In this document: piece by piece, positions 6,942 through 19,930 of the stretch
Numbering within the stretch: the first letter of the stretch is position 1
Layout of the letters: each line of letters opens with the position of its first letter
DNA from: a virus
Taxonomy: Duplodnaviria; Heunggongvirae; Uroviricota; Caudoviricetes
Length of the DNA stretch: 19,930 bases
Direction: 5' to 3' (one strand)
Virus record (IMG/VR): IMGVR_UViG_2529292724_000017
Notes under the pieces: model-generated
Told to the model about the DNA's origin: nothing
Databases searched by the model: none
What the model saw: only the letters and a program-made list of their open reading frames with translations
Position numbers and translations under genes: made by a program

Positions 6942-7655
6942 ATGGATCTCACTCGTAATGACGAACTCCTTTTGAATGATGCAGCTAGACGCTCATTTCG
7001 GGATATGGCAGACCAGGATTATCTCTCAGCTCGTCTGTGTTATAAGCACAAATTGAATTTTCAATTTTTATGGCTTTCGCAACAAGCCGTAGAGAAATAT
7101 ATTAAAGCGATTTTACTTTATAATAGAGTTCCAGTATTAAAATTAAATCACAATTTAAACAAAGGGCTGGCAAAGATTAAAGAAATCCCATATCTTGAAT
7201 TAGACCTAGATGTAAAAAGTGAGCGATTCATAGATTATCTCAATGAGCAGGGCCCAAATAGATACTTCCAAAACACTATGTATACCGAAGGCTTTGAAAT
7301 TATAACCTTGGATAGAACCATCTGGGAATTAAGAAGATACTGCAAGCCACTAAACTACTCAATTACTAACCCAAAAGGTGAAGTGATAGAAATGTTAGAA
7401 CATGAATTGAGTAGCATAAAAAATTCGAAGTCGAGGCCTTATCATACGTTCAAACTATTTGGAGGTTACTTAGAAAAAAGATTAAAAGATAATAAATTCA
7501 ATCAGGGCGACATACTTACATGGAAAAATTTATTTTTTGGAAGAAATAAAAAAAATGCAATTAGAATTGGAAGATCAATGCATGTAACTCATCCAACTCA
7601 TTATATGTACCCAAATGCAACGGAAATGCTCAGTCGTTTCTTTAAAATAAAATAA
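6942..7655 (+). CDS. HEPN-domain protein (237 aa), single-gene AT-rich cargo
   Basis: N-terminal region matches the HEPN pattern as recalled: helix, then SQQAVEKYIKAILL, then NHNLNKGL, then ...NRYF (compare hQQAvEKalKAll ... tHdL ... RYP); SD AAAGG; opposite strand to backbone. Confidence 0.5.
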   Translation: MDLTRNDELLLNDAARRSFRDMADQDYLSARLCYKHKLNFQFLWLSQQAVEKYIKAILLYNRVPVLKLNHNLNKGLAKIKEIPYLELDLDVKSERFIDYLNEQGPNRYFQNTMYTEGFEIITLDRTIWELRRYCKPLNYSITNPKGEVIEMLEHELSSIKNSKSRPYHTFKLFGGYLEKRLKDNKFNQGDILTWKNLFFGRNKKNAIRIGRSMHVTHPTHYMYPNATEMLSRFFKIK

Positions 7656-7964: not shown

Positions 7965-9374
7965 TTAAATTATCGTGATATCTCCTGAATCATCGATAAA
8001 GATAATATTCTCCCTAACGAGTTTATCAAGCCAGCGTTTAAAACCTTTGCGGCCGTTCTCTCCAAACAGAGTGGTAATATCATCACGTATAACAGAGACA
8101 TTACACGGTTCACCTTTGGCTTTTCGGCTCCGGATTGACTGCCAGAGTGCAGCGTGGTTCCCAGTCAGGTGCTTGATATCAGCAAGTTCCGGATCAGGTT
8201 CTCGTGCCTCTCGTGGCAGGTCCTGCACCACCAGCGACGAAATAAGCTCACCATCACGATCTGTGAACAATTCGATCGGACGCAGATCGAATGCGGCCTG
8301 TTTCGGCTCCTCCGCATCTTTCATCTTCGTACAGGTCAGGATTATCGCCCCACCATCCCCCTCGCGCCGGACATTGAACTCTGCATCGAGCGCAGCCCTG
8401 AAAGCACTGGAACCACGTGCGCCTTTGGTATCGTCTTTTCCTGAATGATGCACCACCAGCAACGTGGCGCCAGTCTCACGCTTGATGACGTCGCAGCCTT
8501 CAATAAACGCCCCCATGTCACGAGCATCGTTTTCATCGTTACCACCAAAGCACCGCGCTAGAGTATCTATGACAATCAGGCGAACCGGCTGCCCCGTTTT
8601 GGACTTAACGTCACGCGCAGCTTTGATCATCTCCTGCATTTCCTCACGGCGAACCGGGAAAACCGGACGGTTTACCAGATACAGATTATTTAGTTTCACA
8701 CCATGTTTTTTCTCCCACGCCTTTATTCGCCGCGGAACGCCAATACCACCTTCACCTACTACGTACATCACAGCGCCGGCTGATACCGACTTCCCCGCCC
8801 ACTTCATCCCGGCTGCAACGTGACAAGCCCAGGACACCGCCAGAAAACTTTTATACGAACCGCTCGGGCCGTAGATACTGCTCAGGCTGTTAGCGGGAAG
8901 ATAACTTTTTAACGTGTAATCCTGCTCCTGATCGTACCCATCAGAGCCCACGCTTAAAGGAAGGCTGTGCCGCAGTGACTCCTCTCGCACAGAGACTTCA
9001 ACCTGTTCACGCAGACGAGAAAGATATTCCCTCCAGTCCTCAGGCTCATGGTCGGGGATTCCTTTATACAATTTGGCATCCTGCACGCCAGCCAGCGCCA
9101 GCTTTTCAGCAATGTTATTAATCTGGATAGGCTTTATATTCCCTGCCAGGTAAATCCGCACGGCACGACGGCCATCATCCACAATGCGCAGGTTATCCAG
9201 CTCTGCCAGTTGTTTTGGCCCAAGGTAAACAGGAGGAGTGGTATCTTCGGCAATCTGTTTACCAAGCCCCTCTTCCCAACCCTTCGCATGGGCGTATGCT
9301 TCTGACCCGGCAAAAATAACTGCCTCCGTGAATTTTTCTTTTGGCAGGTGTTTCAGATTCGGTGCGTTTTTCAT
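7965..9374 (-). CDS. replication initiator: primase-associated N-terminal domain fused to RepA/DnaB-like RecA-fold ATPase (469 aa)
   Basis: Walker A GPSGSYKS and Walker B-like LIVIDTL; first ~125 aa shared with the 14246..16063 product. Confidence 0.65.
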   Translation of the reverse strand: MKNAPNLKHLPKEKFTEAVIFAGSEAYAHAKGWEEGLGKQIAEDTTPPVYLGPKQLAELDNLRIVDDGRRAVRIYLAGNIKPIQINNIAEKLALAGVQDAKLYKGIPDHEPEDWREYLSRLREQVEVSVREESLRHSLPLSVGSDGYDQEQDYTLKSYLPANSLSSIYGPSGSYKSFLAVSWACHVAAGMKWAGKSVSAGAVMYVVGEGGIGVPRRIKAWEKKHGVKLNNLYLVNRPVFPVRREEMQEMIKAARDVKSKTGQPVRLIVIDTLARCFGGNDENDARDMGAFIEGCDVIKRETGATLLVVHHSGKDDTKGARGSSAFRAALDAEFNVRREGDGGAIILTCTKMKDAEEPKQAAFDLRPIELFTDRDGELISSLVVQDLPREAREPDPELADIKHLTGNHAALWQSIRSRKAKGEPCNVSVIRDDITTLFGENGRKGFKRWLDKLVRENIIFIDDSGDITII

Positions 9375-9694
9375 TTCAGCCCCTTATCCCATCCGTCAGA
9401 TCCAACACTCAGCGGCAGAGAAGAGCGCAGAGCAGCGATTTTTTTACGCACGTTTTCTTTTACGGTCTCCTGCCACTCCCTGCTTTCCTCAGGGAGATAA
9501 ATAAATTCTTTTCGGAACCGGTACTCAGAAAAAATACACTCATGTGAATACCCATCCCGGACATACGTAATACGGCTATCCGTTATGCATGTGACAGTAA
9601 TTTTTTCTCCGCGAGAATCTTTCCAGCGACTGTTAAGCTCGATTTTTGGTTGAGCGATGCCCTCAAGCTGAACCTGATTGAATTTTTTAATCAT
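9371..9694 (-). CDS. conserved hypothetical protein (107 aa) translationally coupled to the replication gene
   Basis: Homolog of 16060..16359 (shared block TV..I...R.Y..RDGYS); 4-nt overlap with downstream start. Confidence 0.55.
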   Translation of the reverse strand: MIKKFNQVQLEGIAQPKIELNSRWKDSRGEKITVTCITDSRITYVRDGYSHECIFSEYRFRKEFIYLPEESREWQETVKENVRKKIAALRSSLPLSVGSDGWDKGLK

Positions 9695-9698
9695 GAAT

Positions 9699-9878
9699 TT
9701 ATTCCTTGTCGGTAGCCGTTAAACCGTATGCTTCAGCAGCCTGACGAACTGCCTGGATAAAACCTTCCGGTGTGGCCACGATTTCGTCCGGACGAAGGCG
9801 GCGCTCTGTAACCTGACCGTTTTTAACCGTCACCAGTACGCGGATCTCGTAATCAGCAGGTAAGGCGGAGTTATCCAT
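9699..9878 (-). CDS. hypothetical small protein (59 aa)
   Basis: Internal ATG of track ORF 9699..10004, overlapping the stop of the upstream Ash-like gene by 8 nt; clean composition ([16 protein letters not shown]...). Confidence 0.4.
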
Positions 9879-10158
9879 GGCGCACCTCCATTGGCACAGC
9901 TTCATTGCTGTAAGGATCGCTACCCAAGATGCTCCATAGGGTGCGATGTTCAGGATCCATAAACGACACTGAGAGCGGGCTTTCTGTTCGGATTTTGGCG
10001 GCAAAGGTCAAGTCCCAGCCGCAGAACTTTGCACGGGCAGTATCTTCAGTGTCTGCAATGGTGCGCAGAACTATCGGGAGACAAGAGTGACCTCGCGGCG
10101 TGCCAAGGAATAGCCATGTAAATTTTGGGCGAGTTTGGGTATGCTGTTGATCAGCCAT
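9871..10158 (-). CDS. Ash/Icd-like small protein typical of P4-type elements (95 aa)
   Basis: [12 protein letters not shown]...[17 protein letters not shown] resembles the KFTW(R/L)F...E.EAR pattern of Ash/Icd-like proteins as recalled; ATG at 10156..10158 with SD GAGGT; first gene of the replication operon. Confidence 0.45.
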
Positions 10159-10190
10159 AACTGTTACCTCAACTAACGGTTTGTGGTTAG

Positions 10191-10235
10191 ACGTCCCGTG
10201 AGTGGTTCCAAGCACTTCCGGGACGTTGCTTTTTT
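10191..10235 (+). terminator. conserved hairpin ACGTCCCG-(20 nt)-CGGGACGT followed by TGCTTTTTT, terminator-like on the plus strand
   Basis: Paralogous hairpin at 16919..16952 has ACGCCCCG/CGGGGCGT, a compensatory base-pair change; both sit ~40 nt upstream of an Ash-like start. Confidence 0.45.
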
Positions 10236-10251
10236 CACGTCAAGCGTGATA

Positions 10252-10296
10252 ACGTACGTACGTAATAGCAACATCCTATGAGGTTACGTACGTACA
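10252..10296. promoter_or_regulatory. two palindromic operator-like sites (ACGTACGTACGT and TACGTACGTACA) flanking the promoter of the RHH gene
   Basis: Two near-identical palindromes ~33 bp apart; the second overlaps the RHH start codon; region lies between divergent genes. Confidence 0.45.
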
Positions 10297-10487
10297 TGTC
10301 AACAATAAAACGAGATAAAACACCCAAAGGAGAGGGCTTGTCTCCGACATTCCAAATCCGAATAAGTCCTGAATTGCGCCAGCAGATGAATGAAGCTGCT
10401 GAGCGTGAGGGAGTAAGTCTTGGTAATTGGCTTAAAGGTCTGGCTAGAAATGAACTTATTAAGCAAGGAATTGAACCTAAAGGTTAG
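10296..10487 (+). CDS. ribbon-helix-helix (Arc/CopG/HicB-type) DNA-binding protein, candidate repressor of the inner element
   Basis: FQIRISPELRQQMNEAAEREGVSLGNWLKGLARNEL fits a beta-strand plus two helices RHH; divergent from the replication operon; start placed at the second ATG (track ORF begins 10278). Confidence 0.55.
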   Translation: MSTIKRDKTPKGEGLSPTFQIRISPELRQQMNEAAEREGVSLGNWLKGLARNELIKQGIEPKG

Positions 10488-11543: not shown

Positions 11544-12771
11544 TCCTTTTCTTAATTACTTTTACTGTATTTTCTTCACCCACCAGCCCATCAAGGTAGT
11601 CAACCCATCGGTCCAGTGCTTCTTGCTTTTGAGGGATATACTTGCTGCGGTTATAGACTCCGGCCACGCCCTTTATGGTATGCCCCAGCAGCTGCTCTAC
11701 GACCATAAAATCAACGCCCATATCGTTAAGGCTTGTCGAGAACGTTCGTCTCAAATCATGTAATGACCAGCGTTTTTCATGTTTCAGAGAGATAAAGTTT
11801 GTGCATCCCATCGTACTGACGGTTGAATCAGATTTCAGTTCGCCAAATATGTAGCCTCTCCTTTTAGTCTCTTCGTGCAGGTTTACGATCCACTGGCGCA
11901 TTTTTTGAGGAACGGGGCGAATAATTTCTTCGCCGTTTTTACTGTGCTCTTTAGGTACTGTCCAAATCCACTTATCGAAATCCCACTCATCCCATGTAGA
12001 TAAACGCGCCTCACTCAGCCTGCAGCCAAACACGAGACACAAAATCGCCATCCTTTTTTTGTAATTCATTACACGGGTTTTGCCTTTACCATGAAAGTAC
12101 ACTCCCCACAGATCGGCGACGTAGCTTTCCTCAAGTAGCCGCTCTCTCTTGTTCTGATACTTACCGATATCACCAGGGCTCAAATCATCAAGCACATTGC
12201 ACCGCACATACTGGCGCACCCGGCAGTATTTGAAGATCTGCTTTAACTCAATCAGCATTGCAGCAGACTGAACCGGCGCGATTTTCTTTATGCGGTCGAA
12301 GCACTTGATCCAGTCTGACAGACCGCATTTCTCGACAGGAAACCCGCCGATGTAGGGAAAAATGTATCTCTCATAACGGCGATAGAGCCGTAAAGTCTCT
12401 TTGCGCTTTTCCCTGGCATAGTTATCAAACCAGTAATCGATAGCGTTCTTCACAGTTACTGGAGTGAACAGGTTCTCTTTGGTGAGTTTGTTCTCTATTC
12501 GTGGGTCGAGTCCCTGAGATAGCCATGCCCGGCACTCGTCCCTTTTCTCTCTGGCCTGTTTAAGGGTCATATCTGGATACTTGCCTAACGTCATCCAGAC
12601 GGGGGCGCTTTGTCGGCCGGAATGTCTGAAGAAATACACAAAGCTCACAGTGCCACTAACGCTCACTCTGACAGACAGTCCACGACCATCTGCCACCATC
12701 TTTTGACGCGGCTGGGGTTTACCATGTAAGGCCTTTAACGCCTTGTCGCTTAACTTGTTCTCGCCCGCCAT
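11536..12771 (-). CDS. int: tyrosine site-specific integrase, P4-type (411 aa)
   Basis: Length and motifs of phage integrases (C-terminal LHDLRRTF, LLGH, then Y in VYNRSKY); paralog at 18701..19930. Confidence 0.8.
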   Translation of the reverse strand: MAGENKLSDKALKALHGKPQPRQKMVADGRGLSVRVSVSGTVSFVYFFRHSGRQSAPVWMTLGKYPDMTLKQAREKRDECRAWLSQGLDPRIENKLTKENLFTPVTVKNAIDYWFDNYAREKRKETLRLYRRYERYIFPYIGGFPVEKCGLSDWIKCFDRIKKIAPVQSAAMLIELKQIFKYCRVRQYVRCNVLDDLSPGDIGKYQNKRERLLEESYVADLWGVYFHGKGKTRVMNYKKRMAILCLVFGCRLSEARLSTWDEWDFDKWIWTVPKEHSKNGEEIIRPVPQKMRQWIVNLHEETKRRGYIFGELKSDSTVSTMGCTNFISLKHEKRWSLHDLRRTFSTSLNDMGVDFMVVEQLLGHTIKGVAGVYNRSKYIPQKQEALDRWVDYLDGLVGEENTVKVIKKRSA

Positions 12772-12783
12772 AAAACCTCATTC

Positions 12784-12807
12784 TGCAATACACATTGCAA
12801 TACACAC
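12784..12807. repeat. tandem repeat TGCAATACAcatTGCAATACAcac immediately upstream of the integrase start
   Basis: Same motif as 2697..2721 at the other end of the inner element. Confidence 0.5.
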
Positions 12808-12934
12808 TTAACTGCAACGCCGAAAAACAGTAGAAAAGCAATGCAAACAACACCTCTTCTTTCTTCATAATTAACAATAAGTTAATGAATGAATACGGTT
12901 CTTCATGCGTACCCATGAGGTAGTGTGAAGGATA

Positions 12935-12946
12935 ATGGATCATCAT
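12935..12946. repeat. 12-bp direct repeat ATGGATCATCAT, right copy (putative att core / junction)
   Basis: Identical to 2618..2629. Confidence 0.65.
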
Positions 12947-13258
12947 CATGGCGTTCTCCGGCATCACTACACGATCGCCAGCCATTGCGACCACCGAAGC
13001 CATTGAAGCCGCAACACCATCGATATAAACCGTAATGTCTGCCGGATGATTCCGTAGCAGGTTATAGATGGCGATGCCTTCAAACACATCACCACCTGGT
13101 GAATGGATCCTCAGATTGATATGTGAAACATCGCCAAGGGCTTTCAGGTCTTCCGCGAACTGCTTTGCAGTAACACCGAAGCCGCCAATCTCCTCATAGA
13201 TAGATATATCCGCCGCTCCACGAACATCCGCCGCCTTAATGGTGTACCAGCGATTCAT
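12935..13258 (-). pseudogene. ClpP-like prohead protease / capsid gene, 5' portion only (N-terminal ~108 codons)
   Basis: MNRWYTIKAADVRGAADISIYEEIGGFGV...GVAASMASVVAMAGDRVVMPENAMMMIH is colinear with the N-terminus of the intact paralog; the track ORF 12719..13258 reads on into insert DNA after the repeat. Confidence 0.7.
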
Positions 13259-14245: not shown

Positions 14246-16063
14246 TTAATTTTTGCTATCGTCATTAGTGACCGATACACATGATGGCATCCAGTCTTCT
14301 GATTCCTCCGTCAGTGTCACGTTTGAACGCAAACCGTGCTTCGTTTTCCGTTTCATATACTCCCTGCCATATTCCGCCATTGCCCCCGGCATATCTTTAC
14401 CGAAGCGCGTCAGTGTTACAGGTTTACCAAACCCATGTGCCCTCATATAAGCCAGATAGGCATGATAGAGATACCTGCGTGGGCTGAATGGCACAATTTC
14501 AGCATTACCCACTAACAGGCCATCACACATTACCGACGCCATGAGATAGCCGCAGAAGTCCACCAGCGAATCCCCCTCTCGCTTTATCGCCAGTGCTTCT
14601 TCAGATTTCTGCTGCTCATATAACAGGCGTCTGGCTTCGTCCTGGTCAGCAAACCGTGTAAGCAGATGGCGAATCACTACCGCCAGCTCACCTTCTATTT
14701 TTTCCGCCAGCATTGGATCACGTTCGTTCTCCGGTACAACTTCCGAAAAATTGAATATCACCCGACGACGTGAGATCCCCCCGCTGCGGTCACTGAATGA
14801 CATGGCGTTATTGTTAACCGCCAGCACTACTGCCGGAATACGCGTTGAGTAGGGGGCTTTGTGTTTCGGGTCAATTGCCACCTTGTCACCGCCTGTAATA
14901 GCCTTAATCCCTGCCCCATCACCAGCGTAGCGGGTCATATCCGGCATGATAATCAGCGAAAAGCCAACCACTAACGCGCGTTCCCTTGCATCTTCCAGCG
15001 CCTTCATGCTTGCCGATACTGTGTTGGCCTTACCCGCCAGCATGGTGCAAATCTCCGCCATCACGCTTTTACCACTTCCCCCTGGACCTGTTACCTCAAT
15101 GAATAACTGCCAGTCGTACCGGTTCGCCAGCACCATGAATAATGCAGCCAGTACGCGATCCGCCTTGCGGTCATTCTCAGCCACCGAACGGCGTAACCAC
15201 TTCCAGAAATTCGGCGCATGTGTTGCCAGCGTTTCCCCCTCTGCTGGTGGGCTGAAAGGTAATTCACTGGCAATTAACAACCAGTCGTTTTTGTTATGCT
15301 CCCGAAAATTACCTGTTCTGGTATCAAATACCCCGTTACTGAATCCAATCAGGTTACGGGCTGTATTCCCCATTACAGGCAAACTTAACTTCATGGTATC
15401 GACCGCCGATTTAATGGCGTTCTGCGAATAGCTGATCTCCGCATCAATGAAAATCTGTGCCATAGCTCGCTGTAATTCTTTATCCTGTACTGGCTCCCAT
15501 ACAACGCCGTTGTAATGGTGAACAGTGTCAGAGTCAGCATGAATCGCCAGTTCACCGCCATAATGTGCCAGGAGAACTTCGCCGCGTTGACTTGCTCCCA
15601 TCTGGTTAAGCGCCAGTGATGAAGCGTTATCGTCTTTTACCCGCTCTTTTTTCTTTACAGGCAGTTCAACTACCTTTTTCTTTTCCGCCTGCTCTGCCCG
15701 TTCACGTTCCAGATATTCGCGCCAGTTCTCCCGTTTCTGGCTGTGCATTCCTTCAGGATAATAATCAGCATCCCTGACACCTGCCGCTGCCAGTTTCTGC
15801 CCGATGGTATTAACAAGTCCCGGACGCAATAACCCCGCCTGGTAGAGACGCACGCGATAGCGTCCGTCTGGTACGATTTGCAGGTTGTCCAGTTCGGCAA
15901 GTTGTTGCTCTCCAAGCCAGACAGGTGGCACGTTATCGCCAGCCAGTCGCCCGTCCTGTTCCTGCCACTGCTTCGCATGTGCCCACGCATCACTACCCGC
16001 AAAAATGATGACTTCCGTCATTTTGTCACGCGGTTGGTGTTTTAAATTTGGCGCTTTTTTCAT
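14246..16063 (-). CDS. primase-helicase replication protein (P4 alpha / D5-like, SF3 helicase Walker A VTGPGGSGKS), about 605 aa
   Basis: N-terminal domain shared with the 7965..9374 product; central primase-like region; Walker A and DEAD-like motifs; start placed at MKKAPNLKH (second Met), overlapping the upstream stop as ATGA. Confidence 0.7.
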   Translation of the reverse strand: MKKAPNLKHQPRDKMTEVIIFAGSDAWAHAKQWQEQDGRLAGDNVPPVWLGEQQLAELDNLQIVPDGRYRVRLYQAGLLRPGLVNTIGQKLAAAGVRDADYYPEGMHSQKRENWREYLERERAEQAEKKKVVELPVKKKERVKDDNASSLALNQMGASQRGEVLLAHYGGELAIHADSDTVHHYNGVVWEPVQDKELQRAMAQIFIDAEISYSQNAIKSAVDTMKLSLPVMGNTARNLIGFSNGVFDTRTGNFREHNKNDWLLIASELPFSPPAEGETLATHAPNFWKWLRRSVAENDRKADRVLAALFMVLANRYDWQLFIEVTGPGGSGKSVMAEICTMLAGKANTVSASMKALEDARERALVVGFSLIIMPDMTRYAGDGAGIKAITGGDKVAIDPKHKAPYSTRIPAVVLAVNNNAMSFSDRSGGISRRRVIFNFSEVVPENERDPMLAEKIEGELAVVIRHLLTRFADQDEARRLLYEQQKSEEALAIKREGDSLVDFCGYLMASVMCDGLLVGNAEIVPFSPRRYLYHAYLAYMRAHGFGKPVTLTRFGKDMPGAMAEYGREYMKRKTKHGLRSNVTLTEESEDWMPSCVSVTNDDSKN

Positions 16064-16359
16064 TTCTGCTCTCTCCACGCGGCAATCATGTTTTTCAGTT
16101 CCTGTAGTTTTTTATCCACATCCACACGTGACACATGGTTATTTCTGGAAGGCGGGATTTCCCGCCGGAATCTGCTAATAAAGATCTCCACGTTCAGCGA
16201 GCTATGAAATGAATAGCCATCACGAATAAAGTACACACGGTCAAACATTATCGATTTTACTGTTACTCTGTTGCCGTTCTTATCCCGATAAATAGCGCCG
16301 GGGATAATTTTGGGATGTGCATAACCGCTGGCAGTCAAGCCAGATAAATATGTTCTCAT
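16060..16359 (-). CDS. conserved hypothetical protein (99 aa) translationally coupled to the primase
   Basis: Homolog of 9371..9694. Confidence 0.55.
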   Translation of the reverse strand: MRTYLSGLTASGYAHPKIIPGAIYRDKNGNRVTVKSIMFDRVYFIRDGYSFHSSLNVEIFISRFRREIPPSRNNHVSRVDVDKKLQELKNMIAAWREQK

Positions 16360-16365
16360 GATTAT

Positions 16366-16686
16366 TTATCCCCGATTTGAATCAGTATTCGCTTTCTTTA
16401 TGGCATTTAATGCATCTGTGGCATTTTCAATGGTGCACCGTAACGAAATATCAAACTGCCCAAGCATTGCCAGTAACAAACCGATATTACCCATATCAAT
16501 GCGCATGGCCTTTTCGTCATAGTCCTCATTTTCTGACGCATGCCACATCAGGCTACCAATTGACGCAACAGCCATTGATATATTGTCAGTAGCCCCATCC
16601 GCAGCGGAATAAACCTTTTTAGCAATATCATGCTCACAGTTAAAATGCGGATTAATCAGGTACTGGTAATTTGACATATCAGGCAT
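16366..16686 (-). CDS. hypothetical protein (106 aa)
   Basis: Clean composition; start overlaps the stop of the upstream Ash-like gene. Confidence 0.45.
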   Translation of the reverse strand: MPDMSNYQYLINPHFNCEHDIAKKVYSAADGATDNISMAVASIGSLMWHASENEDYDEKAMRIDMGNIGLLLAMLGQFDISLRCTIENATDALNAIKKANTDSNRG

Positions 16687-16882
16687 GGCGCACCTCCTTG
16701 CGGATACGGGCGGTGAACACCATCACGCAGCCAGCCGGGGATTGCTGGCGGGCTTCCTGTTCACTGGTGGCCACGATGGTAATCACACGCGGTTTTGCGG
16801 CGCTCAGGGCGATAAAACGCCAGGTGAATTTATTCAGGTTGTGCGAATCCCGCCCTCGCGGGTGTATGGTATGATTTCTCAT
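16679..16882 (-). CDS. Ash/Icd-like small protein (67 aa)
   Basis: MRNHTIHPRGRDSHNLNKFTWRFIALSAAKPRVITIVATSEQEARQQ...; ATG at 16880..16882 with SD GAGG; paralog of 9871..10158. Confidence 0.45.
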   Translation of the reverse strand: MRNHTIHPRGRDSHNLNKFTWRFIALSAAKPRVITIVATSEQEARQQSPAGCVMVFTARIRKEVRHA

Positions 16883-16901
16883 AGCTGCCTCGATACTCTC
16901 G

Positions 16902-18092
16902 TTATCGTTGGTGGTTAGACGCCCCGTATGTGTTTCCGGCACTGCGGGGCGTTGCTCTTTGTATTTCAACAATCCTTTCGGTGTGTTTCATGTTATGAGC
17001 GCATGAAACACACGTCAAGGCTTTTTGTATTTCTTTTTTTGTGTATACTGAAACACACCGATGATTAGGAGTTTCAGAAATGGCAACGGCTAACAAAAAC
17101 GCAAAATCACAACTGACAACTGTCAGAGTCCCACTAGATGTTATGCAAGGGATGGAATCCGTTAAGCTGGACGGCGAAAGCAATGCCGGATTTATCGTAA
17201 CCGCCATGCGCGGAGAAATAGCCCGCCGCCAAGCAGAAGGCAGCGGAGAAAATCCCCTTGTGTCGTCACTGGATGCCCTGGCTAAGGTCGAACAAATCGG
17301 CATCAAAGCAGCGGAAGAAATCGGGCAGCTTGTCACCGTTGCACGCGAAGAACTCCAGCGTCGCAAGACCAAAGAACCAGAGTAATCACCATCAGCGCCG
17401 TGGTGTAAGGTATTACGGCGCATTGCTATGCAGGACAACACAATGACCGATAAAGAATTGACCAAAACATTATCACCGGCACGGAAAAGACGGCGCAGAA
17501 AGATAGAGCATGAATCAGAAAGATTCGCGCCATGTGCTTTTGCTCTTGAGAAATTCCTTAAAGAGCACAGGAAAAAGCTCTCGTTGCAAACCTTGGAACG
17601 AACCAAATCTGACTGATCACATTGCCCACCAGCCGCAAATGTGGCATTGTTGGTGATGCTCATGCGTTGGGGATAACGTGTAGCTTGTGTCGAGGGGCCA
17701 CCGTAGCGGGTGGCCTTTGTTTTGCCTGTTATCCGGCAATTGTGGCGCTTCGCCACACGGTTGATATAATCCCACTGCTCAGATTCATTTTTTGCGCAGT
17801 AGGTTAATTGTTCACAAAGGCGCTCCGGCAACGGGGCGCTTTTTGTTTTTATTAGTTTGTAGAAACCTGACTCAGAGATAATGCTCATATTCTGATTGCC
17901 GTCAGGGGTGTAAGTTAAATTTACTCCCTTTTTATCATCAAACATCTGCAACGCTCTGGCGTTAACAATATTGGTTTCACTCCCGCCAGTAAGGCCGGAA
18001 ATAACCGGAATAATTTCGGCAAAATTTTGCAGATTCTGTTTTTCAGGACGAACGAAGCCCCGCCCTTGTTCGGGAGAATATCCAGTATTCAT
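16902..18092 (-). CDS. uncertain long ORF (396 codons): the N-terminal ~150 codons look protein-like, the rest is Ser/Arg/Cys-rich and overlaps plus-strand genes
   Basis: Only 17620..18092 looks coding by composition; probably a gene remnant or a spurious extension. Confidence 0.2.
   Translation of the reverse strand: MNTGYSPEQGRGFVRPEKQNLQNFAEIIPVISGLTGGSETNIVNARALQMFDDKKGVNLTYTPDGNQNMSIISESGFYKLIKTKSAPLPERLCEQLTYCAKNESEQWDYINRVAKRHNCRITGKTKATRYGGPSTQATRYPQRMSITNNATFAAGGQCDQSDLVRSKVCNESFFLCSLRNFSRAKAHGANLSDSCSIFLRRLFRAGDNVLVNSLSVIVLSCIAMRRNTLHHGADGDYSGSLVLRRWSSSRATVTSCPISSAALMPICSTLARASSDDTRGFSPLPSAWRRAISPRMAVTINPALLSPSSLTDSIPCITSSGTLTVVSCDFAFLLAVAISETPNHRCVSVYTKKEIQKALTCVSCAHNMKHTERIVEIQRATPRSAGNTYGASNHQR
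16919..16952 (+). promoter_or_regulatory. conserved hairpin ACGCCCCG-(18 nt)-CGGGGCGT upstream of the Ash-like gene
   Basis: Paralog of 10191..10226 with a compensatory base-pair change. Confidence 0.4.
17080..17385 (+). CDS. hypothetical protein (101 aa), possibly an RHH-type regulator divergent from the replication operon
   Basis: SD AGGAG; balanced composition; TTVRVPLDVMQGMESV suggests a beta-strand plus helix; same position and orientation as the RHH gene of the inner element. Confidence 0.45.
   Translation: MATANKNAKSQLTTVRVPLDVMQGMESVKLDGESNAGFIVTAMRGEIARRQAEGSGENPLVSSLDALAKVEQIGIKAAEEIGQLVTVAREELQRRKTKEPE
17428..17616 (+). CDS. hypothetical small basic protein (62 aa)
   Basis: Same frame as and downstream of 17080..17385; basic (ARKRRRRK); weak support. 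Confidence 0.25.
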   Translation: MQDNTMTDKELTKTLSPARKRRRRKIEHESERFAPCAFALEKFLKEHRKKLSLQTLERTKSD

Positions 18093-18700: not shown

Positions 18701-19930
18701 TTATATTTCTCTGGCTATTGGCAGTGTGGTTACGTTTTTGTGAGTACCCGCCAGTATCTCTAACCGCTCTGTCCACATGTCCAGCGCATTACGTTTCGCA
18801 TCGAGATAACGGGAGTGGTTATAGACTCGCTGCATCCCTGGCATCTGGTGAGCGGTGAGTTGTTCGACAATATGCGGATCCACGCCTAAATCGTTCAGCA
18901 TCGTGGTAAACGTGCGCCGTATATCGTGTAGTGACCAGTGCGGATGGTTTAATTTTTTGTGCATGAATCTGCCGTATTGCGACACACTGGCTTCCTGTTT
19001 CAGTTCCCCGAGTAATAGCCCTGTGTGTCTGTTCTGCTCCACCAGCTGCGTGACGAACGGTAAAATGCTTTCCGGTATTGGCCTGAATATGGCGACCTTC
19101 GTTTTGCTGTGCTCTTTCGGTACTGTCCAGAGCATTTCCTTAAAATCCCACTCCCTGATCTCCGATAATCTCAGTTCTCCGGTTCGGCAGCCGAACACAA
19201 TCAGGAGGCGGATTAGTGCGCTGTAGTAGGGCGGGAATATTTTTTTATCCAGCGCCTGTAATAATTCGCCAAGTTCTTTGTTGCTCAGCACGCGTTCGCT
19301 TATGCCTGGTTTTTTGCCAACGTCCACCACGTTAAGATCATCCAGAACGTTACTGACTGCGTAGCGACGTTTACGGCAGAACTTAAGCGCCTGTTTACAC
19401 GCCTGCATCATGTGACCAGACGTTACAGGGGATTTTTTGCGTATCCGGTCAAAACAGGCCAGCCAGTGACGTAACTCGCATTTATCCAGTGGCATATTGC
19501 CAATATGCTGTATGACGTGATTATTCAGGCGGCTTTTCAGGCATACGTAATCGACACGGTTTTCCTTTACGTGCATTTCCAGCCAGTAGCTGATCGCATC
19601 ACCCACCGTTACCGGCTTTAGTGCTTCCTGTATGGAGTAATTAAGCTCATGGCGTGGATTTTTTCCTTCTGCCAGCCATGCGCGACACTGTGCCGCTTTT
19701 TCCCTGGCTGCTTTCAGGCTCAGATCAGGATAATTTCCCAGCTTCAGGCGTTCCGGTGATACCTGGCGTCCAGCTCCTGCCCTGTAGGTGAAATCCCAGG
19801 TTAACAAGCCGCTGGTGGAATGCCTGACGCTCAGGTTTCCCCCGTCATTAAGAAATGTGGTTTTTGGGGCTGGTGTGCCGTTGATTTTTCTTAGCTGTGT
19901 ATCGCTCAGTTTGTTAAGTGCTCTGCTCAT
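18701..19930 (-). CDS. int: tyrosine site-specific integrase, P4-type (409 aa)
   Basis: Homolog of 11536..12771 (diverged); C-terminal HDIRRTF and Y in VYNHSRY; start codon at the window edge. Confidence 0.8.
   Translation of the reverse strand: MSRALNKLSDTQLRKINGTPAPKTTFLNDGGNLSVRHSTSGLLTWDFTYRAGAGRQVSPERLKLGNYPDLSLKAAREKAAQCRAWLAEGKNPRHELNYSIQEALKPVTVGDAISYWLEMHVKENRVDYVCLKSRLNNHVIQHIGNMPLDKCELRHWLACFDRIRKKSPVTSGHMMQACKQALKFCRKRRYAVSNVLDDLNVVDVGKKPGISERVLSNKELGELLQALDKKIFPPYYSALIRLLIVFGCRTGELRLSEIREWDFKEMLWTVPKEHSKTKVAIFRPIPESILPFVTQLVEQNRHTGLLLGELKQEASVSQYGRFMHKKLNHPHWSLHDIRRTFTTMLNDLGVDPHIVEQLTAHQMPGMQRVYNHSRYLDAKRNALDMWTERLEILAGTHKNVTTLPIAREI

Follow-up and report, generated by a model that had tools for sequence, protein, structure and literature searches.

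SymR is the cis-antisense RNA of symE, an SOS-induced toxin gene of Escherichia coli, and is reported to lie on the strand opposite symE, across the symE ribosome-binding site (RBS) and start codon, and to block symE translation (PMC4147584). Experiments have shown RepX (75 nt) to be antisense to repA across its RBS and start codon; it controls the copy number of IncQ plasmids and binds FinO, and FinP resembles it (PMC8136791). FinP (RF00107) is also a two-stem-loop cis-antisense RNA over an RBS, with traJ of F-like plasmids as its target. In P1 immI, C4 masks the RBS of icd and thereby controls the genes downstream.

Here we describe two related hairpins upstream of icd-like genes in a 19,930-nt stretch of viral DNA (Caudoviricetes; IMG/VR record IMGVR_UViG_2529292724_000017), referred to below as the window. 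We consider it likely that each is stem-loop II, a combined terminator and stability hairpin, of a cis-antisense RNA, about 75-85 nt long, which prevents translation of icd and, through polarity, expression of the replication genes. In our best reading this RNA would group with SymR and RepX in both evolution and structure, and it probably keeps the replication operon of two satellite islands silent.

Icd-like genes in two phage satellites

The window holds an inner and an outer element. By gene content both are capsid-encoding phage satellites, because integrases, an AlpA gene and a ClpP-capsid fusion gene are present. The inner satellite (about 10.1 kb) is flanked by a 22-nt direct repeat, TGCAATAC(G/A)CATTGCAATACAC, at positions 2700-2721 and 12784-12805. 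It is inserted in the ClpP-capsid fusion gene of the outer satellite, which PGAP annotates as two pseudogene halves (1028-2647 and 12719-13258). Between its capsid and replication modules the inner satellite encodes a HEPN-domain protein (6942-7655, plus strand) that may be defence or toxin cargo. A tRNA and tmRNA scan of the window returned nothing.

Each replication operon is encoded on the minus strand and begins with an icd-like gene, at 9871-10158 in the inner satellite (NF033153, E = 4.4e-16; PGAP), where it is the predicted target of the RNA, and at 16679-16882 in the outer satellite (NF033153, E = 1.6e-18). The first-pass annotation had called these genes Ash-like; the Ash family is absent from their Pfam, NCBIfam and PHROGs matches, and they are Icd-like instead. 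Behind the inner gene follow a small ORF, a DUF4222 gene and a gene for a RepA-family (AAA_25) helicase (7965-9878), and behind the outer gene a 106-aa ORF, a DUF4222 gene and a gene for a D5-type primase/helicase (14246-16686). Both operons are tightly packed, and in each the ORF next to icd overlaps the icd stop codon by 8 nt. A gene for a YlcI/HicB-like regulator is divergent from the icd operon.

A hairpin upstream of both icd-like genes

In the inner satellite the arms of the hairpin are ACGTCCCG (10191-10198) and CGGGACGT (10219-10226), separated by a 20-nt loop; in the outer satellite they are ACGCCCCG (16919-16926) and CGGGGCGT (16945-16952), separated by an 18-nt loop. The pair had been picked out in the first-pass annotation, and the sequence reads exactly so at both sites. 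The compensatory change described there is also present: T10194/A10223 in the inner copy corresponds to C16922/G16949 in the outer copy, and the pair is retained. Alignment of the two copies reveals matching flanks as well, GGTGGTTAG on the 5′ side of the stem and TTGCT plus a T-rich run on the 3′ side. The hairpins begin 33 nt (inner, ATG at 10158) and 37 nt (outer, ATG at 16882) upstream of the start codon of the first gene on the minus strand, for which the earlier figure of about 40 nt is fair. The 8-bp stem exists as claimed but is only part of the helix, which in full comprises a G·U closing pair, the 8 bp, an internal loop and an apical stem of 4-5 bp. In the inner copy of stem-loop II (10190-10227, plus strand) the internal loop is a 1x1 loop formed by U10199 and U10218, and a 5-bp apical stem carries an 8-nt loop. 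The second copy folds at 16918-16953 (plus strand).

The 8-bp stem alone is not significant: a block-shuffled window contains about 8 perfect inverted repeats of 8 bp whose loops span 3-25 nt, and the window itself has 43 seed hits. A single compensatory change between two copies is likewise weak evidence. Repeats of this kind, perfect over 8 bp and with a short spacer, are not unusual, and comparative support was therefore needed. The first-pass claim that the structure is under selection holds on this comparative ground, its significance coming from 49 distinct homologous sequences in which pairing is kept by many compensatory changes.

Covariation and the strand under selection

Loci were collected via alignment of Icd-like proteins, 73 from viral contigs and 5 from genome contigs. 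The element is present in 60 of these 78 icd-bearing loci and is always antisense to the 5′ end of the icd-like gene. An alignment of 49 distinct sequences was drawn from them and the two window copies, comprising 42 of a main class and 7 of an outer class. RNAalifold predicted both helices from this alignment, and on folding all 49 sequences form two long stem-loops, with the predicted first nucleotide at most 3 nt from the base of stem-loop I. Over a 21-pair structure, 92.9% of the alignment cells are standard pairs, a count that overstates independent events because the 49 sequences share ancestry. Pairs changed on both sides number 13 of the 21, and the covariation score (0.309, compared with 0.156 in shuffles) was reached by none of 500 shuffles. 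When the 3′ partners were slid by 1-3 columns as a control, pairing fell to only 36-44%. One pair of stem-loop II, for example, is CG in 22 sequences, GU in 16, AU in 10 and GC in 1, and another is GC in 21, CG in 16, UA in 4 and AU in 2. Conservation of pairing in homologous elements, which had been proposed as a check, is thus borne out.

Two loci carry additional copies of the gene or the RNA. Locus L074 has two icd-like genes, of which the upstream one is accompanied by the antisense RNA (65 bits; 1625-1713 and 1705-1911). Locus L032 (1836-1921) has a second, decayed RNA copy (31 bits) opposite a degenerate icd-like remnant.

A G·U pair is acceptable in RNA, but its complement on the other strand is an A·C mismatch. 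Read on the plus strand, the 21 pairs include 137 G·U cells, spread over 13 of the 21 pair columns, and 10 A·C cells. Folding energies of the plus-strand RNA are -35.2 kcal/mol (inner; z -4.8) and -37.1 kcal/mol (outer; z -5.3), compared with -25.2 (z -2.4) and -22.5 kcal/mol (z -2.3) for the minus strand. Because of the 137:10 asymmetry and the stronger plus-strand z-scores, the selected structure is on the plus strand of the window, antisense to icd. One feature expected of a cis-antisense RNA, a conserved secondary structure on the antisense strand that is supported by covariation, is thus present at the locus.

These data also bear on a sense-strand role, in which the hairpin would stabilise or attenuate the icd mRNA from its 5′ untranslated region, or serve there as an RNase site, and there would be no antisense RNA. 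The minus strand does fold into a hairpin, and a consensus scan found minus-strand promoter-like sites that would place it in a leader, at 10273-10302 (TTGACA, 18 nt, TAGGAT) in the inner satellite and at 16990-17018 (TTGACG, 17 nt, TAACAT) in the outer satellite. Transcription from the inner site would put the whole region complementary to the antisense RNA inside the icd 5′ leader. On the sense strand, however, the 137 G·U cells become A·C mismatches and only 10 cells change the other way, and the folds lose about 10-15 kcal/mol in strength (z about -2.3). The sense-strand hairpin, moreover, has an A-run before it and no U-run after it, and the homologous SymR and RepX are antisense transcripts. 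We consider a purely sense-strand role improbable. The first-pass annotation had offered both a counter-transcript terminator and a leader structure; covariation, the G·U/A·C asymmetry, the fold z-scores, a promoter-like site at fixed distance and kinship with SymR and RepX (both below) favour the former.

An inverted repeat between divergent genes could instead be a DNA operator that binds a dimeric regulator such as the divergent YlcI/HicB-like protein, and symmetric changes in the half-sites of an operator can mimic compensatory changes. Yet the spacing of the arms varies (18 and 20 nt in the window copies, other lengths among relatives), the arm sequences vary freely while pairing holds, and double-stranded DNA cannot account for strand-asymmetric G·U pairs. 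Better operator candidates lie further upstream, at 10253-10294 and 16981-17013, and we give the operator explanation very little weight. The former region consists of ACGT-rich palindromes overlapping the inner sense promoter-like site, and the latter is a 12-bp inverted repeat, GTGTGTTTCATG...CATGAAACACAC, overlapping the outer one. A small inverted repeat, TCACGTCAAGCGTGA (10236-10250), lies directly 3′ of the inner U-run. All three are likely operators for the divergent YlcI/HicB-like regulators.

Architecture, predicted promoter and predicted ends of the putative antisense RNA

On the plus strand the element reads, in order, AG(C)CAU, stem-loop I, a UUUG(UG)GUUAG block, stem-loop II, (U/C)GCU and a U-rich run. 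The AG(C)CAU at its 5′ end is the complement of the start codon. Model matches extend over 10150-10242 in the inner satellite (75.7 bits) and 16874-16968 in the outer satellite (73.4 bits), both on the plus strand. In inner stem-loop I (10153-10188) the 5′ AGCCAU, the anti-start codon, pairs with UUUGUGGUU, and the loop CCUCAAC (10167-10173) is complementary to the icd Shine-Dalgarno sequence GAGG. Placement of the anti-Shine-Dalgarno sequence (CCUC or CUCC) in the loop of stem-loop I is characteristic of the main class. In outer stem-loop I (16883-16917) AGCUGCC pairs with GGUGGUU; the stem-loop covers the icd Shine-Dalgarno sequence, with CCUC at 16888-16891.

A promoter for the inner RNA is predicted at 10117-10145 on the plus strand, with TGTAAA (10117-10122), a 17-nt spacer, TATGCT (10140-10145) and, 7 nt further on, a predicted +1 at A10153. 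The same arrangement, TGTAAA, 17 nt, TA(T/G)(G/A)CT, 7 nt and the A of AGCCAU, occurs in 42 of 42 main-class sequences. As a promoter it is weak, matching the consensus at 3 of 6 positions in the -35 hexamer (TGTAAA) and 4 of 6 in the -10. The site lies inside the icd codons for H-T-Q-T...K-F-T-W. Where the KFTW motif could be located (40 of the 42 main-class sequences), the Thr ACA and Phe TTT codons making up the -35 are fixed in 40 of 40, whereas the same codons vary in icd genes of the C4 class described below (ACC/ACT and TTC/TTT/TAT). Fixed synonymous positions only at the putative -35 point to constraint at the nucleotide level. For the outer RNA we predict an extended -10, TGgTATGAT (16867-16875, plus strand), and a +1 at A16883; all 7 outer-class sequences carry TG-N-TAT(G/T)AT.

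The predicted 3′ end of the inner RNA lies in the tail UGCUUUUUUC (10228-10236, plus strand); the tail of the outer element is UGCUCUUUGUAUUUC (16954-16968, plus strand). In both, a U-run starts 3-4 nt after the strong hairpin, UUGCUUUUUU in the inner and UUGCUCUUUGUAUUU in the outer copy. The tails after stem-loop II of the 49 relatives have a T fraction of 0.48, compared with 0.32 overall, and in 22 of the 49 the longest T run is only 3. A simple terminator scan did not call the full hairpin, whose long interrupted loop exceeds 8 nt. From the predicted +1 and the U-rich tail, the antisense RNA is predicted to be about 75-85 nt long, with putative termination at the U-run.

Relationship to SymR, RepX and FinP

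At gathering thresholds no Rfam family matches anywhere in the window. The RepX family, RF00043 (Plasmid_R1162; gathering score 55), matches the inner copy with 22.2 bits on the icd-sense strand and does not match the outer copy; at true IncQ loci it scores 73-98 bits. This model matches the repA-encoding strand, including the Shine-Dalgarno sequence and AUGGCU (locus L082, 1134-1208, plus strand; also L083 and L084), and appears to represent the target strand, published RepX being antisense to repA. The SymR family, RF01809 (gathering score 61 bits), has no match to the window copies at E<=10 and matches relatives on the antisense strand with 26-42.5 bits.

Model R1, which was built only from icd-associated sequences, matches E. 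coli SymR (locus L085) with 40.8 bits (E 9e-11, a rough value given the shortened calibration and small search spaces) and RepX loci of IncQ2 and IncQ1 plasmids with 33.8, 31.3 and 21.9 bits. Each is a full-length match that lies antisense to symE or repA, at the RBS/AUG. An IncQ locus that has no RepX region (L080) gave no match. Aligned with SymR and RepX, the element has several blocks in common with them: AG(C/U)CAU at the 5′ end, a central GUU(U/G)GUG(G/A)UUAG, an apical GUGUUGGCGCAC or GUGUUCCCGCAC and a CGCU tail.

The likeness to SymR extends to detail. SymR and the predicted satellite RNA both start 2-3 nt beyond the complement of the start codon, with AGUCAU in SymR and AGCCAU in the element, and the geometry of -10, 7 nt and +1 is the same, the SymR locus having TAGAAT, 7 nt and AGUCAUG. 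Both form two long stem-loops with the 5′ end paired to a UUGUG(A/G)UUAG block; several relatives have exactly the same apical GUGUUGGCGCAC, and the CGCU tail is shared. The targets differ, symE there and an icd-like gene here, as does the context, which is the hsd region for SymR and a phage satellite here, where a U-rich run follows the tail.

RepX is likewise antisense over the RBS/AUG of the first gene in a transcript of replication genes, about 75 nt long and folded into two stem-loops. The window elements have the same build, two stem-loops joined by a conserved linker and antisense across the RBS of the first replication-operon gene (and across its AUG in the inner copy). The linker block GUUGGUGGUUAG is identical in the outer element and RSF1010-type RepX, IncQ2 RepX has the same apical GUGUUCCCGCAC, and the inner operon also ends in a gene for a RepA-family (AAA_25) helicase. 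RepX differs in acting on repA of an IncQ plasmid in copy-number control, whereas the target here is an icd-like gene of an integrated satellite. RepX also lacks the U-run, and neither SymR nor RepX has a classical U-tract.

FinP shares the two-stem-loop cis-antisense design and differs in target (traJ) and context (F-like plasmids). Its model does not match the window, and it gives a sub-threshold match (31 bits) at an IncQ2 RepX locus.

Since SymR, which is the antitoxin RNA of symE, is the highest-scoring relative, the locus could also be read as a type I toxin-antitoxin system, in which the Icd-like protein would be a putative toxin and the antisense RNA its antitoxin, stabilising the island rather than controlling replication. 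Icd-like proteins are named host cell division inhibitors, Icd is an inhibitor of cell division in P1, and in L074 the icd-like gene with the RNA is separate from the second icd-like gene. On the other hand, the icd-like gene always opens a replication operon whose genes are tightly packed and have stop and start codons that overlap, and RepX is an RNA of the same type that controls replication genes. We judge an antitoxin function in place of replication control to be rather unlikely; the two roles are not mutually exclusive and can coexist.

Alternation with C4-type RNA

A second class of satellites has C4 (RF01695, 75-84 bits), isrK (RF01394) and c4-a1b1 targets ahead of the icd-like gene (L003, 2244-2432; L031, 2240-2432; L040, 2220-2435), which is the layout of P1 immI. 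The cis-antisense RNA is absent from these loci. C4 there occupies the same genomic position, directly upstream of icd-like genes; it differs in being sense-encoded, processed from a leader and paired in trans at short a/b sites, whereas the RNA described here is fully complementary to its target in cis. Evidently, the two RNA modules, C4/isrK and cis-antisense, alternate at one position in satellites.

The sister loci made C4/CI-type immunity RNA of the P1/P4 style a candidate for the window too, that is, a sense-encoded and processed RNA acting in trans on the icd RBS. This explanation holds for the sister class of loci. In the window there is no match to C4, isrK or c4-a1b1, either at gathering score or at E<=10, and the sequence and fold of the leader differ, so we discount a P1-type C4 RNA here almost entirely.

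Proposed mechanism

In the mechanism that we favour, the antisense RNA would be transcribed from the plus strand, from a promoter within the first codons of the Icd-like gene. The transcript would cross the icd start codon (inner copy) and the Shine-Dalgarno sequence (both copies) and end at the U-rich run past the hairpin. It would form two long stem-loops, and in the inner copy and the main class the loop of stem-loop I would expose the anti-Shine-Dalgarno sequence. First contact may be made between this loop and an mRNA loop containing the Shine-Dalgarno sequence. Pairing with the 5′ leader of the icd mRNA would then mask the Shine-Dalgarno sequence (and the AUG as well in the inner class), so that ribosome binding would be blocked. 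Once icd translation is lost, expression of the DUF4222 and helicase/primase genes would be lowered through lost coupling or Rho polarity; lower expression of the downstream genes is expected because the next ORF overlaps the icd stop codon by 8 nt and the operon is tightly packed. The RNA would in this way keep the replication module off, or impose a threshold on it, until sense transcription is switched on, and induction of the sense promoter would titrate it.

A broader proposal, which we advance tentatively, is that SymR, RepX and the icd-antisense RNA are one mobile cassette placed on unrelated first genes (symE, repA and icd), the cassette being an antisense promoter, a two-stem-loop RNA and the translation-initiation region of the target. 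In capsid-forming satellites it would act as a replication/immunity switch that can be swapped with C4/isrK at the same position, and it may need chaperones of the FinO/ProQ type, in the manner of RepX and FinP. The chaperone idea stays speculative because the literature on ProQ and SymR, including a paper on ProQ of EHEC, gave nothing usable.

Distribution and significance

Matches to the outer-type RNA region occur in 1590 of 5426 complete E. coli genomes (about 29%), and those to the inner-type region in 286. In some E. coli genomes an outer-type region lies at up to 6 places. Related copies also match more than 100 plasmids of Klebsiella, E. coli and Salmonella, with the same 124-nt match. 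On IncN plasmid pNL194 (L081, 3545-3632) a full RNA copy (89.9 bits) occurs with only a short 5′ fragment of an icd-like gene and adjoins IS3 and IS903B.

The window is at least 99.6% identical to E. coli 90-9280 (NZ_CP024240.1; locus L001) in every 500-nt block up to about position 16,000; identity drops to 84% by 16,500-17,000 and is lost beyond 17,000, which places a mosaic boundary at the RNA/regulator module. The outer RNA of L001 itself (18775-18868) has a stem-loop II with several compensatory differences. Three outer-type RNA regions occur in NZ_CP024240.1, one of which (1261244-1261359; H101) is 100% identical to the outer copy of the window.

The element also touches on gene annotation. 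Icd-like proteins in databases are often 95-118 aa long, compared with a 67-aa core (cf. 9871-10215 and 16679-16972 on the minus strand of the window). The long forms look like N-terminal over-extensions from GTG/TTG codons through the RNA hairpin, and the stretch upstream of the icd ATG is argued to be non-coding because the loop length differs by 2 nt between the window copies. The RNA hairpin would explain such false N-terminal extensions on many database Icd-like proteins.

In a literature search that covered few subscription journals, no report was found of antisense RNA against icd-like genes or in PICI/cfPICI.

The comparison ties three separately catalogued antisense RNAs, SymR, RepX and the icd-antisense RNA, into what would be one family, and satellites evidently exchange one mode of RNA control, cis-antisense or C4-type, for the other at a single locus. 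Should the proposed mechanism hold, the antisense RNA would be the gatekeeper of the replication module in a common class of phage satellites and would offer a direct experimental handle on the silencing and induction of satellite islands.
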